A DNA stretch of 64,000 nucleotides from a virus (lineage: Duplodnaviria > Heunggongvirae > Uroviricota > Caudoviricetes): positions 1-64,000 of the IMG/VR virus record IMGVR_UViG_3300012007_000008; one strand, written 5' to 3'. The translations under genes and the position numbers were made by a program. Positions 32,875 to 48,796 of this stretch are shown here, piece by piece. How positions within the stretch are numbered: position 1 is the stretch's first letter; each line of letters begins with the position of its first letter. The notes under the pieces are model-generated. The model was given only the letters and a program-made list of their open reading frames with translations. It was not told the origin of the DNA and did not search any database.

Positions 32875-33681
32875 ATGTCTGTACATGATGAGCTCGGAAA
32901 ACGGATGAAAGAGTATTACGAACAGATTCCGAAAACAAAACTAATGAGACGTTGCCCTACGGTTGTGAGACTAGACGGCCGGTCGTTCCATAGCTTTACA
33001 AAAGGGTTTAAGCGTCCATTCGATGATCTTCTTATCAGGTCAATGCAAGAAACCATGAAGTATCTCTGTAAAAATGTCCAGGGATGTGTGATGGGATATC
33101 AGCAATCGGATGAAATCAGTTTGCTTCTTGTCGATTATCAGAAATTGACTTCTCAGGCGTTTTTCGACTACGAAGTACAGAAAGTATGTAGCATAACAGC
33201 ATCGATGACCACGATGATTTTCAACAAAATATTCTCAGAGAGAGTAAGGGGAATACAGTATTGCTCAGAGCATTATGATTGGTTTGATGGAAATAATGAG
33301 AAATATATTGATACCATAATTAAAGCGATGAATAAAGGGGCAATGTTTGATAGCCGCTGTTTCAATATCCCAAAAGAGGAAGCTACAAATTACTTCTACT
33401 GGAGACAGTTGGATGCAGTACGTAATTCGATCCAGATGGTAGGGCAAGCGAATTTCTCTCATAAGGAACTGTATCAGAAGACATGTAATAACATTCAAGA
33501 TATGCTTCATGAGCAGAAAGGTATTAACTGGAATGATTTCCCGACCCATAAAAAAAGAGGATCTTGCTGTATTAAGAAAAAGGAAATTATTGACGGAATT
33601 GAGAGATCTAAATGGGTGATCGATACAGAGATCCCAAACTTTGTAGATGAAGGTCGGGAATATATAGAAAGGTTGATCTGA
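32875..33681 (+). CDS. Thg1-like protein (tRNA-His guanylyltransferase family, 3'-5' nucleotidyltransferase)
   Basis: VRLDGRSFHSFTK...RPFDD...YQQSDEISLLL matches Thg1 signatures. Confidence 0.7.
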   Translation: MSVHDELGKRMKEYYEQIPKTKLMRRCPTVVRLDGRSFHSFTKGFKRPFDDLLIRSMQETMKYLCKNVQGCVMGYQQSDEISLLLVDYQKLTSQAFFDYEVQKVCSITASMTTMIFNKIFSERVRGIQYCSEHYDWFDGNNEKYIDTIIKAMNKGAMFDSRCFNIPKEEATNYFYWRQLDAVRNSIQMVGQANFSHKELYQKTCNNIQDMLHEQKGINWNDFPTHKKRGSCCIKKKEIIDGIERSKWVIDTEIPNFVDEGREYIERLI

Positions 33682-33691
33682 AAAATGGAAA

Positions 33692-33904
33692 ATGCGGAAT
33701 GAAAGGATAAACCGGATGAAGTTTATAGTTAACCAGATGCCAAAGAGTAAAAAGGAATGTCCGTTCTCAAAATATGAACAACCAAAAAATGGAATCAGAT
33801 TTAGTTCTGATTACTATAAGTGTAAGCTTGATAAAAAACGATGCAATTTAGATGAAGACTATCCAACCACATGTATGCCGTGTAGATGGCTGAAAGTACA
33901 ATGA
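33692..33904 (+). CDS. small Cys-rich protein
   Basis: 70 aa; preceded by ATGAAAGGAT junction motif. Confidence 0.4.
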   Translation: MRNERINRMKFIVNQMPKSKKECPFSKYEQPKNGIRFSSDYYKCKLDKKRCNLDEDYPTTCMPCRWLKVQ

Positions 33905-33916
33905 AAGGGTTATTTT

Positions 33917-34120
33917 ATGAATCTTAAAATTTGTCCTTTTTGTGGCGGAGACTCTAAAATTGAAAAGATTAGTTATGTAGATGGAAACTGCCATTATTTT
34001 GATTGGAACATATCATGTAATTCTTGCCCCGCAACTATGCGAATCGCAGCCGACTGCTACTATGGTAGAGAATATTTTACAGAAGAAGAAGCAATCGGAT
34101 TCTGGAATAGGAGAAAATAA
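33917..34120 (+). CDS. Lar-family restriction-alleviation-like zinc ribbon
   Basis: CPFCGG...C..C...EEAIGFWNRR. Confidence 0.5.
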   Translation: MNLKICPFCGGDSKIEKISYVDGNCHYFDWNISCNSCPATMRIAADCYYGREYFTEEEAIGFWNRRK

Positions 34121-34135
34121 TGAAAGGATTCTTTA

Positions 34136-34357
34136 ATGGATTATAAAGAATTTGCAAAAACACTTTTTGATTCTGATGATCAAATGTTCCCGAATGGTAC
34201 AGATGCTCAGACCTGTGTAAATATTTTAGCGGAACACTTTTTGGGAAAAGATTTGGTTTTGACCTATCCCGGATGTGGAACACAATGGAATTCTGAAGTA
34301 GTACATGAAATTCTAAGAAAATATCCATCTGGAAAAATCAGAAGGATACATAAATAA
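34136..34357 (+). CDS. hypothetical protein
   Basis: 73 aa; preceded by junction motif. Confidence 0.4.
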   Translation: MDYKEFAKTLFDSDDQMFPNGTDAQTCVNILAEHFLGKDLVLTYPGCGTQWNSEVVHEILRKYPSGKIRRIHK

Positions 34358-34370
34358 AGAGGTTATTTAA

Positions 34371-34472
34371 TGGATAGATGTGATTACTGCCGTTATAAAA
34401 ATACATGGGATTGCGAAGATGGTTGGAATCGTGTACGAAATGACAAAATTTGTGATGATTTTTGTACTTGAA
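34371..34472 (+). CDS. tiny Cys-rich ORF (33 aa)
   Basis: MDRCDYCRYKNTWDCEDGW; below ORF-track threshold. Confidence 0.25.
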
Positions 34473-34554
34473 TTTAACTTCTTATCCAAGAAGCAGCAGA
34501 AGCAGATTCAGAAAATCTTGATGCATCAAGACTAATGAAAGGATTATTTAATAA

Positions 34555-34732
34555 ATGAAACAAGAATTTAATTGTAGTAAATGCGAATCAAGATTTCATT
34601 GTAATGACAGAGATTATGTCGATGAGGCATTATCAAAAATGGAAACACGAGAAGATAACATTTATAATCCTGGATCATTTATTTATTTGATGAGATGTTC
34701 TAATTATAAATATGACGAAAATATACTTTGAT
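34555..34732 (+). CDS. small Cys-rich protein (58 aa)
   Basis: preceded by AATGAAAGGATTATTTAATAAATG junction. Confidence 0.35.
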
Positions 34733-34764
34733 GCAGATAAAACGATTCTTTCATCGGAGGTAAT

Positions 34765-35007
34765 ATGTGGGGAGATTCTGTAAAGATACAAGATTTCGAA
34801 ACGAGCGAGGATATATGGAATAATTCTGTTTATGTTATCGATAGAAATACTCAAAAAATCAAAGTACCAAAATCAGTTGATGATTGGATACACTGCAAGA
34901 CAGTATTAGTCTATAATGTGCCAGGACATGAGAGCAATGGCGAAGATAGATTTTTAATAAAAGCTGGTACAATGTGTCGTTGTTGGCGTATATGGATACA
35001 ATTTTGA
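34765..35007 (+). CDS. hypothetical protein
   Basis: 80-aa ORF. Confidence 0.35.
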   Translation: MWGDSVKIQDFETSEDIWNNSVYVIDRNTQKIKVPKSVDDWIHCKTVLVYNVPGHESNGEDRFLIKAGTMCRCWRIWIQF

Positions 35008-35224
35008 TGATGGTTATTTTATATGAGGTAATGTGATGACAGAAGAAAAAGCGCTTGAAGCGTTTAAAAATCTATATAACGACATAGATAAAGATAATCA
35101 TCTGTTTGTTGGAACGATTAATCCCGAGATGGTTATAGCTGCTATTGAAGCATTGGAATACAAGATTGGCACAAGAATCATTACAGATAGTATAACGATA
35201 GAATGAGTTTTTGATGGAGGATAT

Positions 35225-35608
35225 ATGAGAATTAATCCTAAAATGGATTTGGGCAATATGGCACAAATTTTTGTAAATGGAACAGACGGATATTTATATT
35301 TCGATATTGCATTAAGGGCAATAAATGATAATTGTCTGAACGAAATATTGAATGATACACAATCGATGCATATTTTCGCTAGAAACAATCAAGTTCCGGT
35401 CAAATGTGGTATTTGGATCGAAAACAATGAGTGGTATCCAATTATAAGATTCTCCACAGACCAAAAATTCTGTCTTATAGATGGCGATTGGATATTTGAA
35501 GAGAAGCTTAAAGGAGAGCCTGACGAGATTGAATATATCCATAATCAATTAAAATCATGTATGATGCTTGCAGATATTATCGAAAATACGACTGTAATGA
35601 CTTTTTGA
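35225..35608 (+). CDS. hypothetical protein
   Basis: 127 aa; upstream TTTTGATGGAGGATAT junction. Confidence 0.4.
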   Translation: MRINPKMDLGNMAQIFVNGTDGYLYFDIALRAINDNCLNEILNDTQSMHIFARNNQVPVKCGIWIENNEWYPIIRFSTDQKFCLIDGDWIFEEKLKGEPDEIEYIHNQLKSCMMLADIIENTTVMTF

Positions 35609-35621
35609 TGAGGATTATATT

Positions 35622-36104
35622 ATGAGTAAATCTTTGGATTTTTGTAAAAATAGAGCATCTAACCCAGAAATTTCAGGCTATGCTGACCGCGATTGGAATA
35701 ATGCGGTTGAACAGAATATAACTGATTGTTTGGATTTTATTATAAAAGGTGCGAGAAGCTATAAACTCACAGGGCATTTAGATGATGGTACAGAAGTATT
35801 CTATAATGTTAATTTAGAAATAAATCCAGATGCTGACTTTGATTATTTTATATCTGATTCTTTTATATGCGATGGGACATTAATATTTCTTGCTGAGTCA
35901 GTTGATAAGATGCTGCGAATAATTCTTAGCCTTGGGACATATAATAAAATTTTAGGCAAGCCTCCCAATGGTTGCACCGTAAATTTTATTATTGGCAACG
36001 CCGTTATTCTTGCGGAATATGATGGTGACTGGATACCAAAAGATAAACAATGGATGCGTGAAAGGAATACTGTACTAATACCTTTGAAGGTTTGGTACGA
36101 ATAA
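35622..36104 (+). CDS. hypothetical protein
   Basis: 160 aa; same junction type. Confidence 0.4.
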   Translation: MSKSLDFCKNRASNPEISGYADRDWNNAVEQNITDCLDFIIKGARSYKLTGHLDDGTEVFYNVNLEINPDADFDYFISDSFICDGTLIFLAESVDKMLRIILSLGTYNKILGKPPNGCTVNFIIGNAVILAEYDGDWIPKDKQWMRERNTVLIPLKVWYE

Positions 36105-36130
36105 AAAGATTATTTGAATGAGGTATCAAT

Positions 36131-36550
36131 ATGGAATTGTTATTAAACGGTTTTCTAACTAAAGACTATTACGATCATCCATCTTTAATAGAAGCGGCAA
36201 CATCACGTCAATGCTTTGCAGAATCAATTCCCAGAGAAATACAGTATAAATTTGGAAAAAAATATTATGATATTGGTCTTGGAAAAGATATTAGTTACAT
36301 CCCAGATTGCTGCATGAGTATTTGGTATACGAATGAAAAATGTACATTTGATGAAGCCCAGGAAGCTTTATGTAATTATTTAGATGGTTTTATGACAGTT
36401 GAAGTAGCGTACCAAGGCTATTCTGAATGGACGATCACTGGATTGGATTTAGAAGAATTCAGAATTGGTGGACACGATTTAAAGAAAGAACTCGAAGATC
36501 ATATTGGAGAATACTGCTGGATAAGAATAACAGGAAAGGATAATAATTAA
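36131..36550 (+). CDS. hypothetical protein
   Basis: 139-aa ORF. Confidence 0.4.
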   Translation: MELLLNGFLTKDYYDHPSLIEAATSRQCFAESIPREIQYKFGKKYYDIGLGKDISYIPDCCMSIWYTNEKCTFDEAQEALCNYLDGFMTVEVAYQGYSEWTITGLDLEEFRIGGHDLKKELEDHIGEYCWIRITGKDNN

Positions 36551-37467
36551 TGACACAAAAACATTTTATGGATATAGAAAATCTGAGAGAGAACGATACT
36601 GATCTGAGACGCGGCAATGGTTATGGATTCGAAAAAGGTGATATTGTCAGCATTACGGAGAAAATCGACGGAAGTAATGCTTCTATAAAATATGACCCTG
36701 AAACAGATAGGCTCGTTGCTTTTTCAAGAAAACAAGAACTATCCTTTAATCGTACTCTTCAAGGATTTTGGAATTATGTACAGACTCTCGATATAAAGCC
36801 TTTCAAAGATCATCCATCATGGTTTGTATTCGGTGAGCAAAATGGAACAAATAAAATCCATTACAGGCCGGAGTATGTCAAGAAATGGATTGTATATGAT
36901 ATCTATGATGCTGATACAGAGCAGTGGCAGTCACAGGATGTCGTAAAGAAGTTCTGTGAAGATTATAACTTCCCGTATATTAATGAGCTATATTATGGTC
37001 CATTTATTTCATGGGATCACGTTCGTACTTTCTTGCATAGCCCTGGCTACGGTGATAGACAGGAAGGAATTGTGGTAAAGAATCAGACAAAGCTCAACAG
37101 TCCAGATTCAAGACTTCCGTTTTATTTGAAGATCGTGAATGAAGACTTCAAGGAATCCATGAAAACGAAAGAGAGAGTTATCGATCCTGAGAAAGAAGCA
37201 GCAAAAGCAGAAGCGCAAAGAATTGTTGAATCTATTGTAACAAAAAACAGAGTGGAGAAAGAATTATTTAAGATGCGTGATGAGGGTATCCTTCCAGCGA
37301 AACTCCAGCCAAGCGATATGAGACTCGTAGCACAGAATCTTCCGAAGAGAATTTATGATGACTGCATGAAAGAAGAGAAGGAATTAGTCATGGCAGCCGG
37401 TGAGCACTTTGGGAAGTTGTGTGGGTCATATACTATGAAATTAGCGAGAGAAGTGGTTTTGGGCTGA
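36550..37467 (+). CDS. ATP-dependent RNA ligase, Rnl2-like
   Basis: motif I KIDGSN, motif IV EGIVVK, motif V LKIVNEDFK. Confidence 0.6.
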   Translation: MTQKHFMDIENLRENDTDLRRGNGYGFEKGDIVSITEKIDGSNASIKYDPETDRLVAFSRKQELSFNRTLQGFWNYVQTLDIKPFKDHPSWFVFGEQNGTNKIHYRPEYVKKWIVYDIYDADTEQWQSQDVVKKFCEDYNFPYINELYYGPFISWDHVRTFLHSPGYGDRQEGIVVKNQTKLNSPDSRLPFYLKIVNEDFKESMKTKERVIDPEKEAAKAEAQRIVESIVTKNRVEKELFKMRDEGILPAKLQPSDMRLVAQNLPKRIYDDCMKEEKELVMAAGEHFGKLCGSYTMKLAREVVLG

Positions 37468-37480
37468 AGGGAATATAAAA

Positions 37481-37717
37481 ATGGCTGAAGAAATTAGAAA
37501 ATGTCCTGTTTGTGGAAAAGATAACAAATATACGAGTTATTCAGAATGGGAGTTCGGAATTGTTGAGCAATATTACTGGTGTCCAAGATGCACTTACTTT
37601 GTAGATCAATGCTATAGCGGAGTATATAAAGGAATCAGCACGGATTGTCCGGAAGAATATCTGAGAAGATCCGAAGAGCTTGAGCTAAATTTTTGTAAAC
37701 CAGAGGAGATACCGTGA
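37481..37717 (+). CDS. zinc-ribbon protein
   Basis: CPVCG...CPRC. Confidence 0.4.
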   Translation: MAEEIRKCPVCGKDNKYTSYSEWEFGIVEQYYWCPRCTYFVDQCYSGVYKGISTDCPEEYLRRSEELELNFCKPEEIP

Positions 37718-37720
37718 ATC

Positions 37721-38047
37721 ATGATTGACTTCAGATTTGGGACGGCATTTAGAAATAATTTAACCGATGAAGAAGAAGCTGCTATGGATCACCTGTTAGA
37801 TATGATGACTGCTATAAAACAACAAATTCTTTTAAGAAGGGCAATGAAACGCGAAACTTACTCAAACGAGGAAAAACATATGTGGGATCCCGAGAAAGAT
37901 GCTTGTGAATATTGCTTTGATTGTAAATGCTTTTTAGATGATTATCAGAACTGTCAGGGCGACGTAGAACCTTGTTTTGAGTTTCTCCCGAAGACAAGTT
38001 CTAAATTGAAAAAGGTTGATATTGAAGTAGATAATAGGAGAGATTAA
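37721..38047 (+). CDS. hypothetical protein
   Basis: 108-aa ORF. Confidence 0.35.
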   Translation: MIDFRFGTAFRNNLTDEEEAAMDHLLDMMTAIKQQILLRRAMKRETYSNEEKHMWDPEKDACEYCFDCKCFLDDYQNCQGDVEPCFEFLPKTSSKLKKVDIEVDNRRD

Positions 38048-38475
38048 TGAAGGTTGCAATTACTGGACATCGACCAGGAAGAATTGCTGGTCAGGAACAA
38101 AATATAAAGAAGTGGATTGAAGATTATCTTGCGGGAGTGGACTGTACGGAAGCGTATTCTGGCATGGCTATGGGAACTGATCAGATCTTTGCCAGAGTTG
38201 TTGAAGAGATGGGAATTCAGTTGATTTGCTGCTATCCGTATAGAAGAGATAGATTTCATCCAGCTGAGGAGCAGATTAATGCCAAGGCGAAAGATGTGCG
38301 TTTTATCTCAGAACAATATAGCAAGAAAGCATATTGGATAAGAGATAAATATATGGTTGATAACTGTGATGTTCTTCTGGCTGTATTTGATGGCGAGAAA
38401 GTGGGCGGGACATGGATCACAGTTGATTATGCACAGAGGATTGGAAAGCCTGTAGTGTTTTATGAGTTTAGATAA
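38047..38475 (+). CDS. SLOG/YpsA (DUF1273)-like protein
   Basis: MKVAITGHRP N-terminus. Confidence 0.4.
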   Translation: MKVAITGHRPGRIAGQEQNIKKWIEDYLAGVDCTEAYSGMAMGTDQIFARVVEEMGIQLICCYPYRRDRFHPAEEQINAKAKDVRFISEQYSKKAYWIRDKYMVDNCDVLLAVFDGEKVGGTWITVDYAQRIGKPVVFYEFR

Positions 38476-38506
38476 AACAAGTCTTTGATTAGGAAATTAG
38501 ATTTAA

Positions 38507-38854
38507 TTGGAGGAAAATATGAGTTACAACGAGAACGGTATTTGTAAAATCGCAATAGAACGAGAAAACAGTTGTGGTTCGCATCGACATTATCCGTTAC
38601 AGCTGGTGGCAAGAATAGATGTTGACGACCTGGTAAAGCTATTCGATGAAGCCCCGACAAATTTTGATGGTGAGAACCCAATTTGTAAAGTAAAAGATCC
38701 AATTAAATTTACGGAGTTTGTTATCAGGAGATTATGGGACGATGCACCATATGAAGCCGATGACGTTGTTTGGGCACAACCGTTTACTTATATCTTTGAA
38801 CAATTATTGGAAGATTATAAGCCAGAGTTTCTTGAGTATTTTGAGGAGGAGTAA
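38507..38854 (+). CDS. hypothetical protein
   Basis: 115-aa ORF. Confidence 0.4.
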   Translation: MEENMSYNENGICKIAIERENSCGSHRHYPLQLVARIDVDDLVKLFDEAPTNFDGENPICKVKDPIKFTEFVIRRLWDDAPYEADDVVWAQPFTYIFEQLLEDYKPEFLEYFEEE

Positions 38855-38859
38855 AGAAT

Positions 38860-39066
38860 ATGGTTAAAGTATTTACAACAAACAGTGATGGTAAAATCGA
38901 ATTTACCAAAGACGAATTAGAGAAAGTATTAAATGAAGTGTGGCAAGACGGTCGTAATTCTTGTTACTGGTGGTCATCGCCGACGACGATTACGAGTGAT
39001 AAAATAACAGCAACACCGTATTATACAGATAAATCTGTGGTGGTTACTTGTGATTCGGGAAAATGA
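38860..39066 (+). CDS. hypothetical protein
   Basis: 68-aa ORF. Confidence 0.35.
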   Translation: MVKVFTTNSDGKIEFTKDELEKVLNEVWQDGRNSCYWWSSPTTITSDKITATPYYTDKSVVVTCDSGK

Positions 39067-39254
39067 AATTGAGGTTTGATATGACTAATTTTGAAAAATA
39101 TGCGAATAGCTTAGCACAAGATAAATTTATAGATTCAATGATATTGAATTGTGATGGTTGCCCAGCATATCCGTGTAATACTGAATATGTCACAGAAGAC
39201 AATGGACTTGATTGCGAAGAAAAACTTCGTGATTGGTGTGAAACTGAAAACTAA
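39063..39254 (+). CDS. hypothetical Cys-containing protein
   Basis: 63-aa ORF. Confidence 0.35.
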   Translation: MKLRFDMTNFEKYANSLAQDKFIDSMILNCDGCPAYPCNTEYVTEDNGLDCEEKLRDWCETEN

Positions 39255-39257
39255 ATT

Positions 39258-39515
39258 TTGAAGGAGAAGTATATGGATAAAAAAGCGATAAATATTGTAT
39301 TAAACTATATCTCTGAACATCTGGATAAGTCTGACCCGTCAGTTGAGTTCGCGGCGTATATAGTTTGGAAATGTAAGACTTTACAGAACTGGAAGTACTT
39401 GATTGGCAGTGATCTTCCAGACGGAATGTACTATGAATTAACTTATAATGGGGACAAGAAAGAGTGGTATCTGGATGCTTACAAGAAATTTGAAAATAGA
39501 GTAATTACGGATTGA
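39258..39515 (+). CDS. hypothetical protein
   Basis: 85-aa ORF. Confidence 0.4.
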   Translation: MKEKYMDKKAINIVLNYISEHLDKSDPSVEFAAYIVWKCKTLQNWKYLIGSDLPDGMYYELTYNGDKKEWYLDAYKKFENRVITD

Positions 39516-39699
39516 ATATTTGATCTGACGTGGCGGAATGGGGATAAACGCTAAAGTGTGGCTTCTTATAGATTGGTTGGATTCGACAGGTGTGATCCGT
39601 AAAAAGGTAACAACGAGTCAGCTAAACTCCATCGTAGCAAAAATCGTGGAGTAGATAAATAGCAGGGGGTAATACGCAGAATAACTCAAAACTCCAATC

Positions 39700-39727
39700 A
39701 TGTGAGGTTCGAATCCTCACCGCCAGA
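39700..39727 (+). other. tRNA-like 3' fragment (T-arm plus 3' acceptor strand) inside a 245-nt ORF-free gap
   Basis: canonical T-arm TGAGG-TTCGAAT-CCTCA (G53/C61, T54 T55 C56, A58) then CCGCCAG-A; no complete cloverleaf found upstream; nearest complementary 5' strand TGGCGG lies ~190 nt upstream (39528-33). Confidence 0.35.
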
Positions 39728-39761
39728 TTACAATAAAATAAGTATTTAATATGGAGGAGTT

Positions 39762-39953
39762 ATGGTTAATAAAGAAATTGACAACAGATTTAAATTGAGA
39801 AAATGTGTCTGTGGCGGGACCGTAACACTTTGGGGAGGTATCCCATCATATCAGGGATATAAAATATTTTGTGAGAAATGTGGTGGGAAATGGGAATTCC
39901 CCAATATTTATTCCCCAGTAGAAGTAGCTGAAAGATGGGGAATAGAAAACTGA
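39762..39953 (+). CDS. Lar-like zinc ribbon
   Basis: CVCGG...CEKCGG...VAERWGIEN. Confidence 0.4.
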   Translation: MVNKEIDNRFKLRKCVCGGTVTLWGGIPSYQGYKIFCEKCGGKWEFPNIYSPVEVAERWGIEN

Positions 39954-40101
39954 TTTCATGCCCTCCGGGCTTGCGGACTGTCGGTGAAAGCTCGCTTTTG
40001 CGGAAGAATGAGAAAGGCTTTATTTAAGGAGGTATATGAGAACAATTTATATCGCAGATGACGGAACTCAATTCGATGTCAAGTATAAAGGTAGGTAAAC
40101 A

Positions 40102-40434
40102 ATGACAAATTGCCCAAACTGCGGAGCGCCGATTGAGCCGTATAAATGTAAGTGCGAATATTGCGGCACTTGGTATTTCGACTTTACGGCTTTTGATATG
40201 AGCGATAATAAGCCGTATTACGTTAAGTTCAGGAGTCCGTATGGAATAATAACAACATTGGCGCGACCCGAACTACAGACTATCGAAGTAAATAGCGATT
40301 ATGTTGATTGTTGCGATTCTGTGGGAAACGTAATCACTAGATTTGCGACGAATAGAACTTGCGATCTTGAGGTGGTTTTTCACGCGCAGCCTAATCCTGA
40401 AACCAAGGAATTGTATAGATTGGAGGTACAGTGA
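40102..40434 (+). CDS. zinc-ribbon protein
   Basis: CPNCG...CKCEYCG. Confidence 0.4.
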   Translation: MTNCPNCGAPIEPYKCKCEYCGTWYFDFTAFDMSDNKPYYVKFRSPYGIITTLARPELQTIEVNSDYVDCCDSVGNVITRFATNRTCDLEVVFHAQPNPETKELYRLEVQ

Positions 40435-40970: not shown

Positions 40971-41243
40971 ATGAGCGTAATAATTCGCGGTGTGGATATA
41001 CCAGAAACTTGCTACGAATGCCCTTGTTGGTGGGAGGATGGTGAGTGTTGGGCTACCTCTTATTGTCAGGCTGGAAGTGAATATGTGGAAAATCCGATGG
41101 ATGATAATGAGCAAACCAAGCGCCCGGATGATTGTCCTATTCTTGATTTCGATGAGGTCATGATGAAACATTATAAACAAGGTAGGCTCGATGAAACTGC
41201 CGAAAGAGAAGGTCGGCTAATGCAGTCGTTTAGCCCAGATTGA
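40971..41243 (+). CDS. Cys-rich protein, paralog of 41254
   Basis: shared V.I.G..MP..C.EC...CPL.D...IDFD pattern. Confidence 0.45.
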   Translation: MSVIIRGVDIPETCYECPCWWEDGECWATSYCQAGSEYVENPMDDNEQTKRPDDCPILDFDEVMMKHYKQGRLDETAEREGRLMQSFSPD

Positions 41244-41253
41244 GAGGAATTGT

Positions 41254-41517
41254 ATGGGAGTGTACATCAAAGGCATGAAGATGCCGGATCATTGTTGGGA
41301 ATGCTGGCTGATGCGGAACATGATATGTGGTGCGAGTGGTGAGTTGATTCCGTCATCAGGGAAGCGGAAGTATTGTCCTCTTGTCGATCTTGGAAAGCAT
41401 GGAGGGCTGATCGATTTTGATGCTCTGATAGAAAAATATTGGGATGGAAACAGCATGACGATAACAGCGAGGGATTTAAAAGATATCAAGGCAGTAATCG
41501 AAGCGGAGGGAAAGTGA
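41254..41517 (+). CDS. Cys-rich protein, paralog of 40971
   Basis: see the 40971 gene. Confidence 0.45.
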   Translation: MGVYIKGMKMPDHCWECWLMRNMICGASGELIPSSGKRKYCPLVDLGKHGGLIDFDALIEKYWDGNSMTITARDLKDIKAVIEAEGK

Positions 41518-41681
41518 TGAACAAAGTATACGATGTTTTCGCTGACGAATACATAGATGTGGAAGAGATAGATCCGATTGCGCCGCCAGAACGATACAAG
41601 GAAATTACACCTGATCTTCTCATCAAGAACGCTACACGATGGTTGCGCGAAGGATTGAAAGAAGCGGAGGACGGAACATGA
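41517..41681 (+). CDS. small acidic protein (54 aa)
   Basis: ATGA overlap. Confidence 0.3.
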   Translation: MNKVYDVFADEYIDVEEIDPIAPPERYKEITPDLLIKNATRWLREGLKEAEDGT

Positions 41682-41771
41682 CAATAGATGATTATAACAA
41701 GGCAAGAGATTTGGTGATCGAAATAGAAAGAATATTAAGTATCTCAGCTATGTAAGCGTGATGGATGGATA

Positions 41772-41960
41772 ATGCAGACGATGGACGAAAGCGAAGGAGG
41801 ACGAGTGATGACTATAGAAGAGTGGGAAGAGGAACGTGCCGATTGGTGTTACGAATGCACTGGGTATGGTGATGATTACTATTACGATAAAGAAACTGGA
41901 GAATATGTCAGCGCCTGTGATGGTTGTCCGTGGAATGAAGAGCAAGAAATATATGATTGA
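41772..41960 (+). CDS. small Cys-rich protein
   Basis: CYEC...CDGC. Confidence 0.35.
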   Translation: MQTMDESEGGRVMTIEEWEEERADWCYECTGYGDDYYYDKETGEYVSACDGCPWNEEQEIYD

Positions 41961-41997
41961 TGAGAACTGGAACGACAGTGATATAGGAGGTATAAAT

Positions 41998-42960
41998 ATG
42001 AGAGCAATAACTAAAACACATACGGGAATGATTGTTTCTGACGATGAATTAAAATTAGAATATCTTTATGTCGGAGATTATGGCAAGGAAAACAACATAA
42101 AGGCAGACTTTCTTGGCTACACAAAGAGAATTGAAAAGGTCAAGCATAAGGATGTAGATATAACAGACAAACTTGTTGTAACTGTATCTTCACAAAAAGG
42201 ATGTCCTATGGACTGTGACTTCTGCGATTGTCCCAAGTATGGTTTTCATGGAAATTGTTCAGTCGTCGAGCTTATTTCAGAGATTACAACCGGAATAGCA
42301 TTGTCTGGAATCAAACACGGAAAAAGACTTAATGTACACTTTGCCCGTATGGGAGAACCCACATTTAATTCCGATGTTATAAAGGCTGCCTCCATCATAG
42401 CTACTATGGTGGAGCCGGGGAATACCGTAAGTTTTGATGAATATCACCCGGTAGTATCTACTATGATGCCTAAAAGCAACAGCCATCTTGAAAACTTTTT
42501 GCAAGAATGGGTTAAGTGGGGCAAAACATACGGTGGAGAGGATGGTTTTGGACTTCAGTTCTCTATCAATACTCTCAATGAAACGGACAGAAACCAAATG
42601 TTTAGAAACAGATCTCTTTCCTTATGGGAGATAGCTGACATTATCCAAAGGCTTCCTGCTCCAGGAAAAAGGAAGTATACCCTTAATTTTGCGGTAACAA
42701 GCAAGAGCGACCTAAATCCTGATCTTATGAATCAGTTTTTTGATAAAGAGAAGTGTATTGTTAAGATTACGCCTATCCATGAAACTCATGAGGCTGTAAA
42801 TCAGGGGTATGAAATCATCAAGAATTTTGATGTCTATGAAAAATTTGAAAGACCTCTTGTTGAAGCAGGATGGGAAGTCATCGTGTTTGTACCGTCCGAA
42901 GAGGAAGATAAAGACAGGATTACCTGTGGAAACTCACTGATTGCAAAAGCCTCAAAATAA
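41998..42960 (+). CDS. radical SAM enzyme, substrate unknown
   Basis: SD ATAGGAGG; CPMDCDFC motif; GEPTF. Confidence 0.6.
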   Translation: MRAITKTHTGMIVSDDELKLEYLYVGDYGKENNIKADFLGYTKRIEKVKHKDVDITDKLVVTVSSQKGCPMDCDFCDCPKYGFHGNCSVVELISEITTGIALSGIKHGKRLNVHFARMGEPTFNSDVIKAASIIATMVEPGNTVSFDEYHPVVSTMMPKSNSHLENFLQEWVKWGKTYGGEDGFGLQFSINTLNETDRNQMFRNRSLSLWEIADIIQRLPAPGKRKYTLNFAVTSKSDLNPDLMNQFFDKEKCIVKITPIHETHEAVNQGYEIIKNFDVYEKFERPLVEAGWEVIVFVPSEEEDKDRITCGNSLIAKASK

Positions 42961-43207
42961 CGATGAAAGCCCTTGTCAGAATCATATAGGGAGGAATGAT
43001 ACGACAAACGCTGAAGCAATCGAATACATCAAAAAGAATTGTTATGGAGAATGGTGAGAAGATGATTGGCGAGAAGCTATGGATATGGCTATTAAGGCTC
43101 TGGAATCACCATCACCATGCGACCTGTGCGCATACAATCCGCCATCAAGGTATTGGAAACCGTGTAATTGTTGTCCGGCGGAACCAATGATAGATAATAT
43201 GTAAATT

Positions 43208-43241
43208 AACCGGGTAATTATCACCCGGTTTTATTTTTTTT
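43208..43241 (+). terminator. strong intrinsic terminator
   Basis: AACCGGGT-AATTATC-ACCCGGTT followed by a T-rich run. Confidence 0.65.
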
Positions 43242-43308
43242 AAAGCTTTGAGTAGGCGGATATTCAGAAGTAATAACTGTAAGCGGAAAATCCAGAAAAG
43301 GAGAACAC

Positions 43309-43431
43309 ATGAAAAAATTAGATATTCTGATAATTTCTATTTATGGGGCAATTGTATTTTGTGTCATTAGGAAGATTATTGCAAAGAAGCGGAGAAAGTA
43401 TACTACTGTCCGAAGGAAGATCTTGGTATGA
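43309..43431 (+). CDS. holin-like small membrane protein (40 aa)
   Basis: one TM then basic tail; SD AAAGGAGAAC; upstream of endolysin. Confidence 0.35.
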   Translation: MKKLDILIISIYGAIVFCVIRKIIAKKRRKYTTVRRKILV

Positions 43432-43736
43432 ACGATTACTATGTTAACCCAGATGTTACCGTTAAAATGATGAGAAAAAATAGATTTGTCGAATACGGAG
43501 ACAGATGGGAATATGTTTCAGACTTAATTAACGGATTCGTGTATGTCAGAATCATTATATATAAGGACGATTTAAGCATAATAGATAATGTGATGACGGC
43601 CGGGACGAATAGTTCCTATATCGCGTTTTATAACGAACTGTTTTATAAAAACAATCTTGTCGCTCAGAAGGCAAAGAAAAAATATAATCGGATTTTGTCA
43701 AGACTGGCAAATAACGAAATCCTAATTCATAAATAA
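43428..43736 (+). CDS. hypothetical protein
   Basis: 102-aa ORF, ATGA overlap. Confidence 0.4.
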   Translation: MNDYYVNPDVTVKMMRKNRFVEYGDRWEYVSDLINGFVYVRIIIYKDDLSIIDNVMTAGTNSSYIAFYNELFYKNNLVAQKAKKKYNRILSRLANNEILIHK

Positions 43737-43810
43737 TGGGATTAGTTAACGCTTGGATCTAGAATATGTTATTGCAGGATGATTAATTTTAACAGAGAAA
43801 GGAGTTAAAA

Positions 43811-44584
43811 GTGACAAATGCTGAAAAATTTATATCTACGCTAAAAGAGATGAATAAACTCTTTAAGTAGGATATTGCGAAAGGCCATAAGTGGTGCTAC
43901 ACAAACAAGACATCTCGGAAGGCGAAGACTTTTGATAACGCCCTGAAGTACGGGAAATACTGGTGTAATTGCGTCGATGGCGTTCAATGGGCGCTTAAGA
44001 GATCGGGACTTGCGGAGTCAGATGGTCTCGCCTGGTACGGTTCAGAAGGATCCGGCATGAACTGGATCGGGTCTAACTCTAAGAAGAATGCCGAGAAATA
44101 CCTGAAAGTGAAGAAAATCGGGAACAAGACGGTCGGACAACTAAAGGCTTCCGGCCAACTTCGTCCCGGCGACATCGTAACCTATATGACGTTTAGCCAT
44201 ACAAACGTATTTCTGGGCGGTAATAAATGGTTCGACTCAGGTCACGCCACTTGTACTCAATCAACGGGAGATGGCGTTCCGTATAAAAAATCTGGCTGGA
44301 TCTGTACGAGAAAACTCGACAATTATAGGGTGGGTTACATCCTGAGAGTAAAAGAGACGGTCTCCTATCGCGTTAGAGTTGGAATCTATTCAGTAAGAGA
44401 AAATGCGGACGCTAAGCTCGCAAGTTTGGCGGCGGTAGGGTTAGACGGCTTCCTGGAATCTCAGAAGGATGGGCTTCATGTGTATAGTGGAAAGACTTAC
44501 TCAAAGAAGCCTAACGCTCAGGCTCGAATGAAGGAACTGGCAGATAAGAAGATTGCCGCCGTGATCGAGACTGTGAAGGTATAA
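43811..44584 (+). CDS. endolysin: Cys/His peptidoglycan hydrolase (CHAP/Amidase_5-like) plus C-terminal SPOR domain; one in-frame TAG at 43868
   Basis: SD AAAGGAG, GTG start; GHKWCY...CNCVDGVQWAL, FDSGHATC; SPOR-like YRVRVGIYS...AKLASLAAVGLDGFL...HVYSG. Confidence 0.6.
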
Positions 44585-44635
44585 GATATGAAATTTAGAA
44601 ATTTTAGAAGAAATAGAAAGAAAAGGAGAAAAGTT

Positions 44636-45145
44636 ATGAGTGATACAACTGTTAATAAGAATCTGTCAATTTCCGCTCCGTGGGTCACGTACTATCACCA
44701 GGTCAATGCTCTGTTTGATGAGGACCCGAATGTTTCTGTTGTTTACGATGAGGAGAACAACGTAATCAAGCTTTATGTTGACGGAACCGATAAGGCAGAG
44801 GCTCTTAGTAGACTTCTTCCGACAGAGAAGAACTTTGGCGGAGTATCTGTCAAGGTCGAGATCATTCCGGCAAACAAGACGGAAAGCATAGCCGACACTC
44901 TGGCTGCTGCGTTTGATGGGAATCCGAACTTTGTAGAAGTTGTTGAGGCACATTCTAGCTACGGCGAGCCGACATTCATCTATTGCGCGTTCGCCGCGAA
45001 GGTCGCACAGTACTGGAATGACAATCTCCACGATCTTCATGGAAATACTTCGACTCTTTACGAGGATCTTGCTCGCGAAGTAATCGGAGAAGAAATCGGC
45101 GTGTGTTTCTGTACTGACGAGATCGTGAAGGAAGAGACGGAATAA
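44636..45145 (+). CDS. hypothetical acidic protein
   Basis: 169 aa, SD GAAAAGGAGAAAAG. Confidence 0.45.
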   Translation: MSDTTVNKNLSISAPWVTYYHQVNALFDEDPNVSVVYDEENNVIKLYVDGTDKAEALSRLLPTEKNFGGVSVKVEIIPANKTESIADTLAAAFDGNPNFVEVVEAHSSYGEPTFIYCAFAAKVAQYWNDNLHDLHGNTSTLYEDLAREVIGEEIGVCFCTDEIVKEETE

Positions 45146-45221
45146 TATAAGGTAGACATAACGGCAACTGTTGACTTGTTCAGTAGTTGCCGTTTCTATT
45201 CGAGAGAATTTGGTGGAATAC

Positions 45222-45428
45222 ATGGGAATTTATAAATACTCTCCTGGTGACTATGTGTGGTTTACCGCATGGGATCCGAATGAACATGGGGATGTTAGGA
45301 AAATCGGAAGAGTTGTAGAAGCATATCCGGCGACTGAACGGCCGGGTATTCAGGATTTATACATTGCGTACGAAAGACTGGTTTATACTCGGCAGTCTGA
45401 CGAAGTTGAAAGTATAAGAAAGAAGTAA
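45222..45428 (+). CDS. hypothetical protein
   Basis: 68-aa ORF. Confidence 0.35.
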   Translation: MGIYKYSPGDYVWFTAWDPNEHGDVRKIGRVVEAYPATERPGIQDLYIAYERLVYTRQSDEVESIRKK

Positions 45429-45430
45429 AA

Positions 45431-46156
45431 ATGAAGATTAAAGTTTTGAACGAACAACCTTTGACGCGAGTGAAAAATGTGTATGGATGTACGAATTTCG
45501 GTGGGTTAGAAATCGTTGGGAAGAAAATGTATACGATTAAAACCAAATCAGACAATCAACTTTCCGTTATTTCTGTGTATCCAGATTACACAAAGCCTGA
45601 AAGAACAAATCATAAGTATGCCTGTTGCATGTGGCATGGCAATGACCTCGCATACAATAACGGCCTTCTGTATGTTGCCCCGTGTGACAAATTTGTTGAG
45701 GTAGTGAACACTGGAGATTGGTCGCATCAGAGACTTGATTGTAATATTTTCATTTCCGCAATCGCCCATGTTTCTGGAAATCAGTTTGTAGGGTTGTCGC
45801 AGAATTACGGTGACTCACTTGGGCTTGCGGTATTGGAACATCGTGGCTACCGGATGGAAGTGCTGAGTGAATGGAATTTGAGAAATCCAAAATCTAAAGA
45901 TGGCTATCTGGTTACTCAAGGGATTGGGTTTAAGAAGAATAACAACTCAATCTTTCTTGTTATTTCAAAAAATGATTTTCATAGAAATATTCTACTGAGA
46001 TGCAAGATCGGCGACCAAGAACCCGATTATTGTTTCAGATCTAAGAAATCAACTGGGCGTTACGAGTTTGAGGGAATTAGTTTTACGAAGTCGGGACAGA
46101 AAGTCATTGGTAGTAACTTGCCGAACGGACAGGACAAAATTTTTATTGCCGCATAA
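45431..46156 (+). CDS. hypothetical protein
   Basis: 241-aa ORF. Confidence 0.45.
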   Translation: MKIKVLNEQPLTRVKNVYGCTNFGGLEIVGKKMYTIKTKSDNQLSVISVYPDYTKPERTNHKYACCMWHGNDLAYNNGLLYVAPCDKFVEVVNTGDWSHQRLDCNIFISAIAHVSGNQFVGLSQNYGDSLGLAVLEHRGYRMEVLSEWNLRNPKSKDGYLVTQGIGFKKNNNSIFLVISKNDFHRNILLRCKIGDQEPDYCFRSKKSTGRYEFEGISFTKSGQKVIGSNLPNGQDKIFIAA

Positions 46157-46286
46157 TGAACGAATTTTTTGGACTTAAGTCATTGAGAAATTCTGAAGAG
46201 AATAAAGGAGGACATAATCTCTGCGATTGGGGAGACGGGCTGCTCCGATCTCCTTACTCGCCATTTGTAAAGACCGAGGTAAAAGA

Positions 46287-46823
46287 ATGTTAAAACCAGC
46301 GATATCGTACAAGGAAGAACTTGAAGATTTATTCTCCCAGGAAATATATACAGAGAACTACTTCCTCTACTCAGGATATGCATACTGTCACGAATTGCCG
46401 AAGATTGGGGCGGAAGATAACCATTTTCAGTGGGCGATTGTTAACAGCCAGGAAGAAGTGATTGGCTATATGGCATATCAGGTAGATCCTGGAAGTGATA
46501 CTGTGAAAAACTTTGGACTGTATTCGTTCGATCATAGTAACCCAACAATTGGGAGAGACCTGTTTACAAAAATGGAAGAACTGGTCGCCAGATATCGAAG
46601 AATTGAGTGGGGGATGATCGGCGGGAACCCGGTCAAGAAACACTACGACCGTTTTTGTAAGAAGCATGGTGGGAATTGTGTAAAACTGAATCAAGTGACA
46701 AGAGATGAAGCAGGAAATTACCGTGATGTATATATCTATGAGATTGTGAGGGATTTAGAATGTCAGATTACAAAGAACCCAGAATCGGTCAGCGTTGTTT
46801 CTTCGCATTTCGCGCAGGAATAA
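46287..46823 (+). CDS. possible GNAT-family acetyltransferase
   Basis: 178 aa; weak acyl-CoA-binding-like block RIEWGMIGGNP. Confidence 0.3.
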   Translation: MLKPAISYKEELEDLFSQEIYTENYFLYSGYAYCHELPKIGAEDNHFQWAIVNSQEEVIGYMAYQVDPGSDTVKNFGLYSFDHSNPTIGRDLFTKMEELVARYRRIEWGMIGGNPVKKHYDRFCKKHGGNCVKLNQVTRDEAGNYRDVYIYEIVRDLECQITKNPESVSVVSSHFAQE

Positions 46824-46933
46824 ATCAGTTTGGAAATATTATAGCCATTGAAGATGATGGAACTCGGATACAGATTCGCGGCGATGACGGAAGAATATAT
46901 GCCGGTTGGACTAAGGACGTGGTTCTACTGTGA
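46760..46933 (+). CDS. small ORF (57 aa) overlapping the end of the 46287 gene
   Basis: MSDYKEPRIGQR...; lies at the left border of the TnpB element. Confidence 0.2.
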   Translation: MSDYKEPRIGQRCFFAFRAGINQFGNIIAIEDDGTRIQIRGDDGRIYAGWTKDVVLL

Positions 46934-47031
46934 GTCTAATTTGTGGAAATACTGGCGCTCCAGTTGGTAAAAACTGTGTTTTGTCCACGCTACAGAAGAA
47001 AAATATTCAATATCCCTGGATAGGTGGTAAT

Positions 47032-48123
47032 ATGAATAAAGGTGTTAAATTTAGAGCGTACCCAAATAAGGATCAACAAAACTTAATAAATCAAACATTC
47101 GGATGTTGTAGATTGATTTATAATAAAGGTCTCGCGATGCGAAACGATGCTTTTGAGAACGGTCAAAAGGTTGGATATACGCAGACATCTTCAATGCTTA
47201 CCGATCTTAAGAAGCAAGATGAATATTCATTCTTGAGAGATGTCGATTCGATTGCTCTGCAACAGTCATTAAGGGATTTGGATCGTGGATTCAAGAATTT
47301 CTTCGAGAAACGGACGAAGCATCCGAGATTTAAGAGCAAACATAATAATAGACAGTCGTATAGGACAATTAACCAAAAGGATAATATACGTATTGTTGGA
47401 AAATATATCAAGTTACCAAAGATAGGATATGTGAAGATTAAACAGTCAATGGATGTTGGACATATCAATAACGTGACTATTGAGAAGACTCCCACTGACA
47501 AATATTATGTAGTTCTGAATGTCGATTTCGAACCAGAGTTTCGTCAGAATGATGGATGTATGATTGGTATAGATGTCGGTATAAAGGAATTCTATTCTGA
47601 CAGTAATGGGAATATTATTGAAAACCCAAAATACCTTGAGAAGTCCTCACGTAAACTCCGCAGGGAACAAAGAAGACTCTCTCGGAAGCAGAAAGGAAGT
47701 AGTAATAGGAATAAACAGCGGATCAGGGTTGCCAGAATGCATGAGAAGATTACAAATCAAAGAAATGATTTTTTACAGAAGCAGACAACTATGCTTGTGC
47801 GTGAAAACCAAACCATCTGCATAGAGGATCTGAACGTAAGAGGGATGCTTCGTAACCATAGGCTTGCGAAGTCAATATCAAGTGCATCTTGGTCGAAATT
47901 TTTTACAATATTGGAGTATAAAGCGATGTGGTACGGAAATGATATAATTAGAGTACCGACCATGTATCCAAGTAGTCAGACTTGTTCTTGTTGTGGATAT
48001 AAAAATCCATTAGTAAAGAATCTGGCAGTCAGAGAATGGGAGTGCCCAAGATGTCATACCATACATGGCAGAGATAAGAACGCTGCGATTAATATTTTGA
48101 ACAAAGGGCTGTCAGTAGCCTAA
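47032..48123 (+). CDS. tnpB: IS200/IS605-family TnpB (OrfB); no TnpA present
   Basis: RuvC-I IGIDVGIKEF, RuvC-II ICIEDLNV, zinc finger CSCCGY...CPRCH, RuvC-III RDKNAAINI. Confidence 0.8.
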   Translation: MNKGVKFRAYPNKDQQNLINQTFGCCRLIYNKGLAMRNDAFENGQKVGYTQTSSMLTDLKKQDEYSFLRDVDSIALQQSLRDLDRGFKNFFEKRTKHPRFKSKHNNRQSYRTINQKDNIRIVGKYIKLPKIGYVKIKQSMDVGHINNVTIEKTPTDKYYVVLNVDFEPEFRQNDGCMIGIDVGIKEFYSDSNGNIIENPKYLEKSSRKLRREQRRLSRKQKGSSNRNKQRIRVARMHEKITNQRNDFLQKQTTMLVRENQTICIEDLNVRGMLRNHRLAKSISSASWSKFFTILEYKAMWYGNDIIRVPTMYPSSQTCSCCGYKNPLVKNLAVREWECPRCHTIHGRDKNAAINILNKGLSVA

Positions 48124-48334
48124 GAAACTGATAAATACCGTAGGGCATACGGGAATATACGCTTGTGGAGATCGTGTAAGACTAAATCCTTGTGATGATG
48201 CAGTGGTCGTTGAAGCAAGAATCCCATGACTAAAGTTGTGTGGAGTGTCAACCTAATGGTGAATGGAAAAAGTCTGGAAGAACAGATTCCGTCTCATGGC
48301 AAGTGTGGCTTTCGGAGCAATATGATGCTGAGGA
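48124..48334 (+). ncRNA. putative omegaRNA/right-end region of the TnpB element
   Basis: ~210 nt non-coding directly 3' of tnpB; hairpin CCGTA-GGGCA-TACGG at 48141. Confidence 0.35.
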
Positions 48335-48349
48335 TTGGAGAGAAGAGGA

Positions 48350-48796
48350 ATGAAAATTTTATTCACTGATGTGGATGGTGTTCTAAACGATGAAGCAACG
48401 ACAGCCAAAAGTCCGTGCGGTTATACCGGAATCATGGATTCTAAGGTTAAGCTACTGAAAAAGATAATTGATGTAACTGGAGCAAAGATAGTTCTTAGTT
48501 CTGACTGGCGTTTGTGTGATGAGGACGACCCTGATTATAAGTACCTCCTAAATAAACTCCGGTATAAGGGTGGAATTGGTATCTATGATAAAACGCCGGA
48601 TCTCAGTTGGCAAAGACGTGGATTGGAAATTGAAACATGGTTGAAATGTCATCCTGAAGTCGAAGCATGGGTTGTGTTGGATGACATTGATTTTAGTGAT
48701 TTTAATGAAATAACGGATCATGTTGTGTTGACGGATGGATATTACGGGCTTCAGGAGGCCGATGTTGAGAAGGCGATTGAAATATTGAAAGGATGA
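48350..48796 (+). CDS. HAD-superfamily phosphatase
   Basis: motif I FTDVDGVLN; motif III/IV region VVLDDIDFSD. Confidence 0.55.
   Translation: MKILFTDVDGVLNDEATTAKSPCGYTGIMDSKVKLLKKIIDVTGAKIVLSSDWRLCDEDDPDYKYLLNKLRYKGGIGIYDKTPDLSWQRRGLEIETWLKCHPEVEAWVVLDDIDFSDFNEITDHVVLTDGYYGLQEADVEKAIEILKG

Follow-up and report, generated by a model that had tools for sequence, protein, structure and literature searches.

We analyzed a stretch of 64,000 nucleotides of phage DNA, positions 1 to 64,000 of the IMG/VR virus record IMGVR_UViG_3300012007_000008; the whole stretch is called the window below. Three genes on its + strand code for predicted RNA end-processing enzymes: a Thg1-like protein (32875..33681), an ATP-dependent RNA ligase (36550..37467) and a standalone HAD phosphatase (48335..48796). 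A preliminary description had joined these genes to a P-loop kinase gene (24625-25218) and a tRNA-like 3′ fragment, both within the window, and had proposed that together they counter RNA damage inflicted by the host. In our analysis the three enzymes were retained and the other two parts were set aside. The four genes, kinase included, extend across 24 kb with about 40 small genes of unrelated kinds among them, and the three repair genes do not form an operon. The explanation we favor, with slightly more belief than doubt, is that three separately placed RNA end-repair enzymes lie with anti-defence genes in a hypervariable region and would serve the phage by repairing tRNA as a counter-defence. 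Gene context was compared in 92 related loci, 81 of which contain a Thg1 gene, by all-against-all clustering of 2,856 open reading frames (ORFs).

The Thg1-like protein

The Thg1-like protein (268 amino acids) matched the Pfam Thg1 family PF04446 with an E-value of 2e-30 (105.7 bits, cut-off 29.2) and PHROG 4717, named 'tRNA-His guanylyltransferase', with an E-value of 4.5e-88. Its best match among solved structures is the Thg1-like protein (TLP) of B. thuringiensis, BtTLP (4KGK, E 5e-62), whereas human, yeast and Candida Thg1 were matched at just about 1e-6 (E 3e-7 to 7e-6). Residues E16, R32, D34, S78, D79 and E80 of the phage protein align with E12, R28, D30, S74, D75 and E76 of BtTLP, which are metal-binding carboxylates and nucleotide-binding residues (Hyde et al., PMC3701042). 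Every catalytic or NTP-binding residue that the alignment shows is therefore conserved, and the preliminary assignment of this gene was borne out. The phage protein differs from BtTLP in an insertion of about 30 residues at positions 124-155. It is probably an active enzyme of the bacterial TLP clade, a predicted templated 3′-5′ nucleotidyltransferase for the 5′ ends of RNA or tRNA. In the characterized members of this clade 5′-truncated tRNA is repaired by templated 3′-5′ addition, and repair of tRNA 5′ ends is the main activity of BtTLP (PMC3701042); for the phage protein the activity is a prediction. Thg1-like proteins are very common in such phages: IMG/VR holds at least 90 relatives at more than 50% identity, mostly on contigs of 100-230 kb, and 163 cultured-phage records in INPHARED carry a Thg1-like gene.

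The enzyme could also be thought to do no more than mature the tRNA-His of the phage or its host by adding G-1, with no part in the repair of damaged tRNA. Every phage homologue bears the database name 'tRNA-His guanylyltransferase', and tRNA genes are present in large phages of this group. However, G-1 of bacterial tRNA-His is normally encoded in the gene, and the repair-type BtTLP is far closer to the phage protein than are the eukaryotic Thg1 enzymes. Moreover, none of the 81 related loci has a tRNA-His gene at 10 kb or less from Thg1, and ARAGORN detected no tRNA at all in the window. We consider maturation of tRNA-His as the sole function to be quite improbable.

Directly 5′ of the Thg1-like gene are genes for an SPFH/Band-7 (prohibitin-like) protein and a GDSL/SGNH hydrolase (31236-32861). 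The hydrolase gene (32337..32861, + strand; Pfam Lipase_GDSL_2, E 1e-17) ends 13 nt 5′ of the Thg1-like gene and may be a partner co-expressed with it; a GDSL hydrolase gene next to Thg1 was found in none of the 81 related loci. SPFH homologues are also present near Thg1 in seven related loci and in Fusobacterium phage Fnu1.

The RNA ligase

The ligase (305 amino acids, + strand) consists of a nucleotidyltransferase domain and an all-helical C-terminal domain, an Rnl2-like architecture. It matched Pfam RNA_ligase PF09414 (E 1.3e-22) and, over its whole length, PHROG 548, RNA ligase (E 9.5e-48). The sequence contains the motifs KIDGSN (K38), FGE (E96), EGIVVK (E172) and LKIV (K194). Alignment of 33 homologues showed that K38/D40, G95-E96, Y116/D120 and E172-G173, belonging to motifs I, III, IIIa and IV, are invariant or nearly so. 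Motif V of T4 Rnl2 has two lysines, K225-x-K227; in the phage family the putative counterpart is L-K194-I-V196, with a single lysine and with V196 invariant in the same alignment.

The AlphaFold (AF2) model of the ligase (pLDDT 88.6) has a four-helix C-terminal domain, with helices over residues 198-304. Foldseek placed T4 Rnl2 (2HVR/2HVQ) first, with full-length alignments, followed by Rnl3 of archaea and Rnl5 of Naegleria; no ligase was retrieved when the PDB was searched with the sequence of the same protein. The match to the Rnl2 equivalog TIGR02307 reached 26.9 bits, far under the cut-off of 197. Because of this score and the single lysine in motif V the protein was not filed as a strict Rnl2. 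As modeled, it has an Rnl2-like fold in a distinct clade and is not an Rnl2 orthologue. The preliminary naming as an Rnl2-like RNA ligase was correct. Metagenomes contain more than 1,300 members of this clade, and 334 INPHARED records contain this ligase family.

The gene is located 3′ of the replication genes, no DNA ligase was found in the 64-kb window, and homologues are labeled 'putative DNA ligase' in some records. These observations would suit an enzyme of DNA replication or repair, one that seals nicks in DNA or in RNA-DNA hybrids and does not repair tRNA. Such a role seems very unlikely to us, since the best matches by both fold and sequence are RNA ligases of the Rnl2, Rnl3 and Rnl5 types, and since in one relative the gene stands directly after an Rnl1-type ligase gene and before a separate NAD-dependent DNA ligase gene, near PTH2. 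In a second genome a homologue is again near PTH2, and in 6 of 19 loci the ligase gene is no further than 1-5 kb from tRNA genes. The Rnl1, PTH2 and tRNA-gene contexts therefore favor a role on RNA or tRNA over a role on DNA.

Residues 227-291, within the helical C-terminal domain, gave weak matches to archaeal PCNA (PDB E 4e-5; NF002219 E 2e-4), which are probably spurious.

The HAD phosphatase

The third gene (48335..48796, + strand) codes for a standalone 'Swiss-army-knife' HAD phosphatase (HAD_SAK), a predicted RNA 3′-phosphatase. The protein matched Pfam HAD_SAK_2 PF18143, titled 'HAD domain in Swiss Army Knife RNA repair proteins', with an E-value of 8e-29 (101.2 bits, cut-off 27.5). Its likely start is the ATG at 48350, which is also used in public gene calls (P0255). 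The HAD phosphatase with a DVDGV motif proposed for this position was confirmed. Across the aligned family, D7 and D9 of motif I (DVDGV) never vary, nor do D111 and D112 of the late DD motif (motif IV). The AF2 model has a pLDDT of 95.8, and its best fold match in the PDB is the 3′-phosphatase of T4 Pnkp (5UJ0; E 5.5e-4, TM 0.45). Cap-less sugar-phosphate phosphatases of the KdsC and MDP-1 types score just slightly below 5UJ0, which makes the structural pointer to an RNA 3′-phosphatase a weak one.

Gene context is more telling than fold for a role of this protein in RNA repair. In two settings that are unrelated to each other (L156/L157 and L158), HAD_SAK_2 homologues overlap with genes for calcineurin-like (Metallophos) phosphoesterases, to which they are coupled in translation, and the cluster in L158 also holds Macro-ASCH and GDSL-like genes. 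In L159 the homologue is three genes away from RlaP, and in unrelated contigs HAD_SAK_2 genes are found near RlaP, Macro or NADAR genes.

In the window itself the gene is flanked by TnpB on the 5′ side and by a dUTPase gene starting 10 nt after the HAD stop codon. Because of these flanks a second reading stays alive, namely that the protein is a phosphatase of nucleotides or other small molecules acting with the adjacent dUTPase in nucleotide metabolism. The homologue in L161 has a dUTPase gene about 3 kb away, and the similar fold scores of KdsC, MDP-1 and T4 Pnkp would also be in keeping with it. Set against this are the membership of the HAD_SAK_2 family, the first rank of the T4 Pnkp phosphatase among the fold matches and the coupling of homologues to Metallophos, RlaP and Thg1 genes, and we regard the nucleotide-metabolism role as rather improbable.

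The TnpB gene (46930-48334; IS605 OrfB / Cas12f-like TNB domain) is situated in the accessory region directly 5′ of the HAD gene. A 211-nt gap 3′ of TnpB may be the place of a guide (omega) RNA.

The kinase gene and the search for other repair components

The protein encoded at 24625-25218 was considered as a polynucleotide kinase. This was ruled out by full-length matches to guanylate kinase families (phrog_1815, E 5e-33; TIGR03263, E 3e-15; Pfam, E 2.6e-8) and by the GMP-binding motif TTRPQRPGE; AAA_33 matched the P-loop only (E 5e-4). The gene stands beside nrdD/nrdG, and its inclusion in an RNA-repair set, as first proposed, was abandoned. The protein is a nucleotide kinase of the GMP type, and therefore the set as seen is without the 5′-kinase required by T4-style repair of damage from anticodon nucleases.

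A Walker-A scan of all ORFs in the window gave just an AAA_24 protein, DnaB and one small ORF, with no candidate for a polynucleotide kinase (Pnk). Proteins from relatives (AAA_33-HD, RlaP, putative Macro, HD and Metallophos) were also used as tblastn queries, and none of them matched the window. As the window has neither a kinase nor a cyclic phosphodiesterase, the repair set is incomplete as seen. In relatives the missing parts are supplied by an AAA_33-HD fusion or by a calcineurin-like phosphoesterase adjoining the Thg1-like gene.

The tRNA-like element

An element with tRNA features was located at 39663..39727 on the + strand, in an unusually long intergenic gap of 246 nt. It has a T-arm (39702-39719) and a 3′ acceptor-like strand (39720-39727), which read GTGAGG-TTCGAAT-CCTCAC and then CGCCAGA over 39702-39727, and 5′ of the T-arm there is a degenerate anticodon-loop-like stretch, ACTCAAAAC. 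The T-arm with its 3′ strand occurs once in the window, and none of 100 shuffles gave a match within 3 mismatches. The significance of the T-arm comes from the extra stem pairs, because GGTTCRANTCC, the T-loop motif by itself, has an expectation of 0.27 occurrences per window. Neither ARAGORN at default settings nor Rfam (for tRNA even at E<=10) reported a tRNA or tmRNA at the element. The observation that first drew attention to it, a T-arm and acceptor strand that belong to no complete tRNA, was thus correct.

Several identities were tried and rejected. For an intron-bearing tRNA, ARAGORN with relaxed settings in intron mode gave only a poor 'tRNA-SeC with a 126-nt intron' having a 3-bp anticodon stem and mismatches. 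Two stretches inside the element, GGATTCGACAGG and CGTAAAAAGG, look similar to the 5′ part of the tmRNAs from E. coli and B. subtilis. A tmRNA was nevertheless rejected: ARAGORN and Rfam had no match, the characteristic pair would be G3-C70 and not G3-U70, no plausible tag was found, and the GGATTCGAC motif sits within the element and not directly 3′ of the acceptor strand. The stretch GGATTCGA is merely complementary to the T-loop. A copied 3′ end of a host tRNA, as in an attachment site, is unlikely as well: the 23-mer was found neither in IMG/VR nor in any of 185,579 species genomes, no second copy is present in the window, and the integrase genes are 12 kb and 35 kb away.

The element was absent from the 92 related loci, from the one relative that has the same downstream Lar-like gene and from 8 GTDB loci, and a gapped pattern scan for it returned tRNA arrays only. 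Since it is missing from all relatives fetched, no covariation test was possible. We compared it with 153 independent tRNAs from the fetched loci, 19 of which are tRNA-Leu. The best match to 39680-39727 was the tRNA-Leu(CAA) of a ligase-bearing contig binned to Blautia; it takes in the anticodon loop, the last part of the variable arm, and the T-arm (compare ACTCAAAACTCC..AATCATGTGAGGTTCGAATCCTCAC with ACTCAAACTCTCCGGAGAAATCATGTGGGTTCGAATCCCAC). The top matches were tRNA-Leu(CAA/UAA) genes of related phages, four of the best five being Leu against a background of 19 in 153. When the upstream 22 nt were shuffled, the observed score was reached in 42 of 1000 trials. The gene for tRNA-Leu(CAA) recurs near this ligase in L005, L010 and L151. 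On sequence grounds, the element is probably a decayed or recombination-truncated phage gene resembling tRNA-Leu(CAA), a relic and no working part of the repair set. Its place in the proposed toolkit was given up accordingly, both because no relative fetched has it and because its best matches are phage tRNA-Leu genes.

A different explanation takes the region from about 39523 to 39727 as a functional tRNA-like RNA of 200 nt that is closed by an acceptor-like helix and has the T-arm at its end; its use would be that of a processing signal, a decoy or a repair substrate. The T-arm is perfectly canonical though the rest of the element has diverged, pairing is possible between CCGCCAGA and a strand on the 5′ side, TCTG..GGCGG (39523-39536), and the unusually long gap lies inside an anti-defence region. 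However, an equally good closing helix arose in 5-11% of shuffles, the fold of the whole element has a z-score of -0.97, Rfam has no match and no relative fetched has the element, not even the locus with the same downstream gene; likeness to tRNA-Leu accounts for the sequence without invoking a function. A functional RNA is in our opinion unlikely here, and the relic of a phage tRNA-Leu gene is the preferred interpretation.

A scan of metagenomes with the 21-mer of the element led to another family of tRNA-like RNAs, about 75 nt in length (L134-L147; for example L142:5212-6066 and L140:1041-1880). Its members have a D-arm, a short tetraloop-capped hairpin with three covarying pairs and an invariant T-arm, and they are followed by a long hairpin that sequesters the 3′ strand. 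Rfam tRNA scored 27.6 bits on this family, slightly below threshold. The RNA is always directly 5′ of a gene for an unannotated protein of about 243 amino acids with an RNxLAHG (HEPN-like) motif, and the proteins come from Gammaproteobacteria (Klebsiella, Rahnella, Vibrio, Pseudomonas, Xanthomonas). The layout is similar to that of AbiF, in which a non-coding RNA that acts as antitoxin precedes a HEPN toxin (PMC12373285). We do not claim kinship of the window's element with this family. The covariance-model match of 25.4 bits is circular because the loci were retrieved with the window's own 21-mer, few extra bases are shared, and the hosts are Gammaproteobacteria.

Gene context in related phages

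Clustering of the ORFs showed no partner in more than about one quarter of the Thg1 loci, by which a conserved operon was rejected. Nevertheless, other repair genes recur near Thg1. A fusion of AAA_33 kinase and HD phosphohydrolase is present in 18 of the 81 loci, RlaP is nearby in others, and a Macro-like protein, read as such from its sequence and with no Pfam match, is also found near Thg1. In the two closest relatives the Thg1 stop codon is where a gene for a calcineurin-like phosphoesterase begins (L014 9982-10551, L001 18602-19147); this gene is absent from the window. L014 also contains a HAD_SAK homologue 1.3 kb 3′ of Thg1, and the proximity of Thg1, Metallophos and HAD_SAK genes in relatives therefore speaks for a functional link. 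Thg1 is present as well on each of the three closest contigs that have the ligase gene.

In bacteria Thg1 has been linked to genes for Pnk, Macro and RNA ligase, and Thg1 was found in large phages as well (PMC2904730). Rnl1 and Rnl2 ligases, standalone SAK-HAD phosphatases and sporadic Thg1 have been described as RNA-repair parts of jumbo phages (PMC7824862). As the linkage seen in the relatives fits both accounts, a joint reading of the three enzymes as RNA repair is reasonable, though indirect.

A number of observations weigh against this joint reading. The three repair genes are 3-15 kb apart, with a terminator-like site (43208-43230) between the ligase and HAD genes. Their neighborhoods differ in every relative examined, and just 4 of the 81 Thg1 loci have the ligase gene at a distance of 10 kb or less from Thg1. 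Neither a polynucleotide kinase nor a cyclic phosphodiesterase was found in the 64-kb window. Motif V of the ligase has a single lysine where T4 Rnl2 has K-x-K, and the dUTPase gene directly 3′ of the HAD gene is also compatible with nucleotide metabolism. Finally, we found in the literature no biochemical test of phage members of the Thg1-like, ligase or HAD_SAK families.

It could therefore be that chance has brought three independent accessory genes into one hypervariable region, each enzyme having substrates of its own and no pathway being common to them. The dispersal of the genes and their changing neighborhoods agree with this, as do the lack of any HAD relative in a single-sequence scan of IMG/VR and the restriction of co-occurrence with Thg1 to the three closest ligase-bearing contigs. 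Contrary to it are the tight Thg1-Metallophos-HAD_SAK cluster in L014 and the recurrence of each family with other RNA-repair genes in unrelated genomes. We think that wholly separate functions are a minority possibility, and we keep to the reading that the three enzymes would act in RNA repair. Of the module for countering RNA damage that had been proposed, the role is favored by the literature and by the contexts in relatives; a conserved module and the 5′-kinase it would need were not found in the data.

The source phage and the remainder of the window

A stretch identical to the window was found on a gut-metagenome contig of 174,889 bp (ENA ERZ964371), and the window is thus part of a gut-metagenome phage genome of about 175 kb. 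Its relatives in IMG/VR are contigs of 100-190 kb, and INPHARED contains no cultured phage close to the window at the DNA level. The host is probably a gut Clostridium of the Lachnospiraceae type, because GTDB contigs with the ligase family were binned to Lachnospiraceae, Blautia, Fusicatenibacter, Hungatella, Pseudobutyrivibrio and Coprobacillaceae.

Nearly all genes as far as about 53 kb are on the + strand. A replication block identified with Pfam (AAA_24 protein, DnaB helicase, DnaG primase, PD-(D/E)XK nuclease and a Pol III alpha subunit of 1150 amino acids) is followed by a nucleotide-metabolism block that includes an exonuclease, the guanylate-kinase-like protein, nrdD in three pieces and nrdG. 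From about 30 to 52 kb there are small genes, mostly without annotation, and a tyrosine integrase closes the run. This part, 3′ of the replication and nucleotide-metabolism genes, is a hypervariable accessory region.

The genes that lie between the repair genes are unrelated ones; among them are Lar, Tad8, zinc ribbons of a Lar-like kind, and genes for a SLOG/YpsA-like and a radical-SAM protein. Two of them are known anti-defence genes, the Lar restriction-alleviation gene (33917-34120) and the gene for the Tad8 Thoeris inhibitor (34136-34357), and it is their presence that gives the repair genes an anti-defence setting. The protein encoded at 37481-37717 has one weak Lar-like Pfam match, and a zinc-ribbon protein (39762-39953) is Lar-like by eye only.

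The SLOG/YpsA-like protein (38047-38475; ITGHRP motif, phrog_289) is encoded 580 nt 3′ of the ligase gene. Homologues of it are found near Thg1 in six related loci; L014 has a separate SLOG gene of the YAcAr family, with no match to this protein. The radical-SAM protein (41836-42960) has the RNA methyltransferases RlmN and Cfr as its sole named relatives. The match is to the core only (residues 97-192; TIGR00048, E 1.5e-12; PDB RlmN, about 5e-7), and the protein falls in phrog_24834, a family of unknown function. Judged from these similarities it may be an RNA-modifying enzyme.

The three coding pieces of nrdD are at 25609-26652, 26909-27262 and 28337-29323. The first gap is a group I intron (26594-26850; Rfam, 70 bits) and the second is about 1.07 kb long (27263-28336). 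Directly 3′ of nrdG a short membrane protein of 192 amino acids resembling formate/nitrite transporters is encoded at 29826-30404. Two tyrosine integrases and one protein of 587 amino acids with sigma-70 region 4 and GmrSD_N (DUF262) domains are encoded at 4790-5782, 8181-9944 and 51995-53233.

A putative repair pathway

If the three enzymes act on the same damaged tRNA, their work could be ordered as follows. A nuclease of the host or of a competitor would cut or trim tRNA. The HAD_SAK phosphatase would take off the terminal 3′-phosphate, and the Rnl2-like ligase would join breaks with 3′-OH and 5′-phosphate ends in duplex regions such as tRNA stems. The Thg1-like protein would restore lost 5′ nucleotides of the acceptor stem with the 3′ strand as template, as bacterial TLPs do. 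A 5′-kinase and a 2′,3′-cyclic phosphodiesterase, both required in a complete T4-type pathway, might be encoded elsewhere on the genome, might be provided by the host or might not be needed for this kind of damage.

A bolder version of this scheme, to which we give very little credence, is a kinase-independent repair of tRNA 5′ or acceptor ends. It would be anchored by the TLPs of gut phages, joined by a phosphoesterase of the Metallophos type in relatives or HAD_SAK in the window, and perhaps by the GDSL hydrolase encoded next to Thg1, and would counter an as yet unknown end-trimming nuclease of the host. The T-arm minihelix (39523-39727) would in that case be expressed and mimic a tRNA, as a decoy or as a template.

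Should the three enzymes indeed repair tRNA, an uncultured phage of gut Clostridia would join the large phages that have RNA-repair enzymes of their own. The most useful lead is a comparative one, the recurrence of the Thg1-like gene beside phosphoesterases, whether calcineurin-like, HD-kinase fusions or HAD_SAK. It points to a candidate tRNA 5′-end repair during phage infection and to a host nuclease that would make the damage.

Comparison with known systems

The set resembles the T4 pathway (Pnkp with Rnl1, plus Rnl2) in being phage-encoded and in having an Rnl2-like ATP-dependent RNA ligase and a HAD (DxDxT-type) phosphatase. It differs in that the window has no polynucleotide 5′-kinase, the phosphatase is a standalone SAK protein and not fused to a kinase, the ligase reaches 26.9 bits where 197 are called for, and the genes are dispersed; the Thg1-like enzyme, in turn, has no counterpart in T4.

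A closer likeness is seen with the complements of jumbo phages (Iyer et al. 2021, PMC7824862), in which Rnl2-family ligases, standalone SAK-HAD phosphatases and sporadic Thg1 occur with SLOG, Macro and NADAR counter-defence genes nearby. The window, in contrast, is from an uncultured gut phage of about 175 kb and contains no kinase, 2H, cRec or RlaP gene. Both the Thg1-like and the ligase families are also present in cultured phages, among them Herelleviridae, the Bacillus phages Bcp1, B4 and BM15, and Fusobacterium phage Fnu1, where the genes already bear the annotations tRNA-His guanylyltransferase and RNA ligase. Identity to the proteins of the window is just 31-48%, and the host lineage and genome organization are different. 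The gene combination is already catalogued in large phages, and the window adds no new component or mechanism to it.

Bacterial neighborhoods in which Thg1 is joined by Pnk and Macro, and in some cases RNA ligase, have been described by Anantharaman, Iyer and Aravind (2010, PMC2904730). Although Thg1 in the window is flanked by the GDSL hydrolase gene and small anti-defence genes, with no kinase or Macro gene, the bacterial arrangement is echoed in the relatives by the AAA_33-HD fusion, RlaP and the Macro-like neighbor of Thg1.

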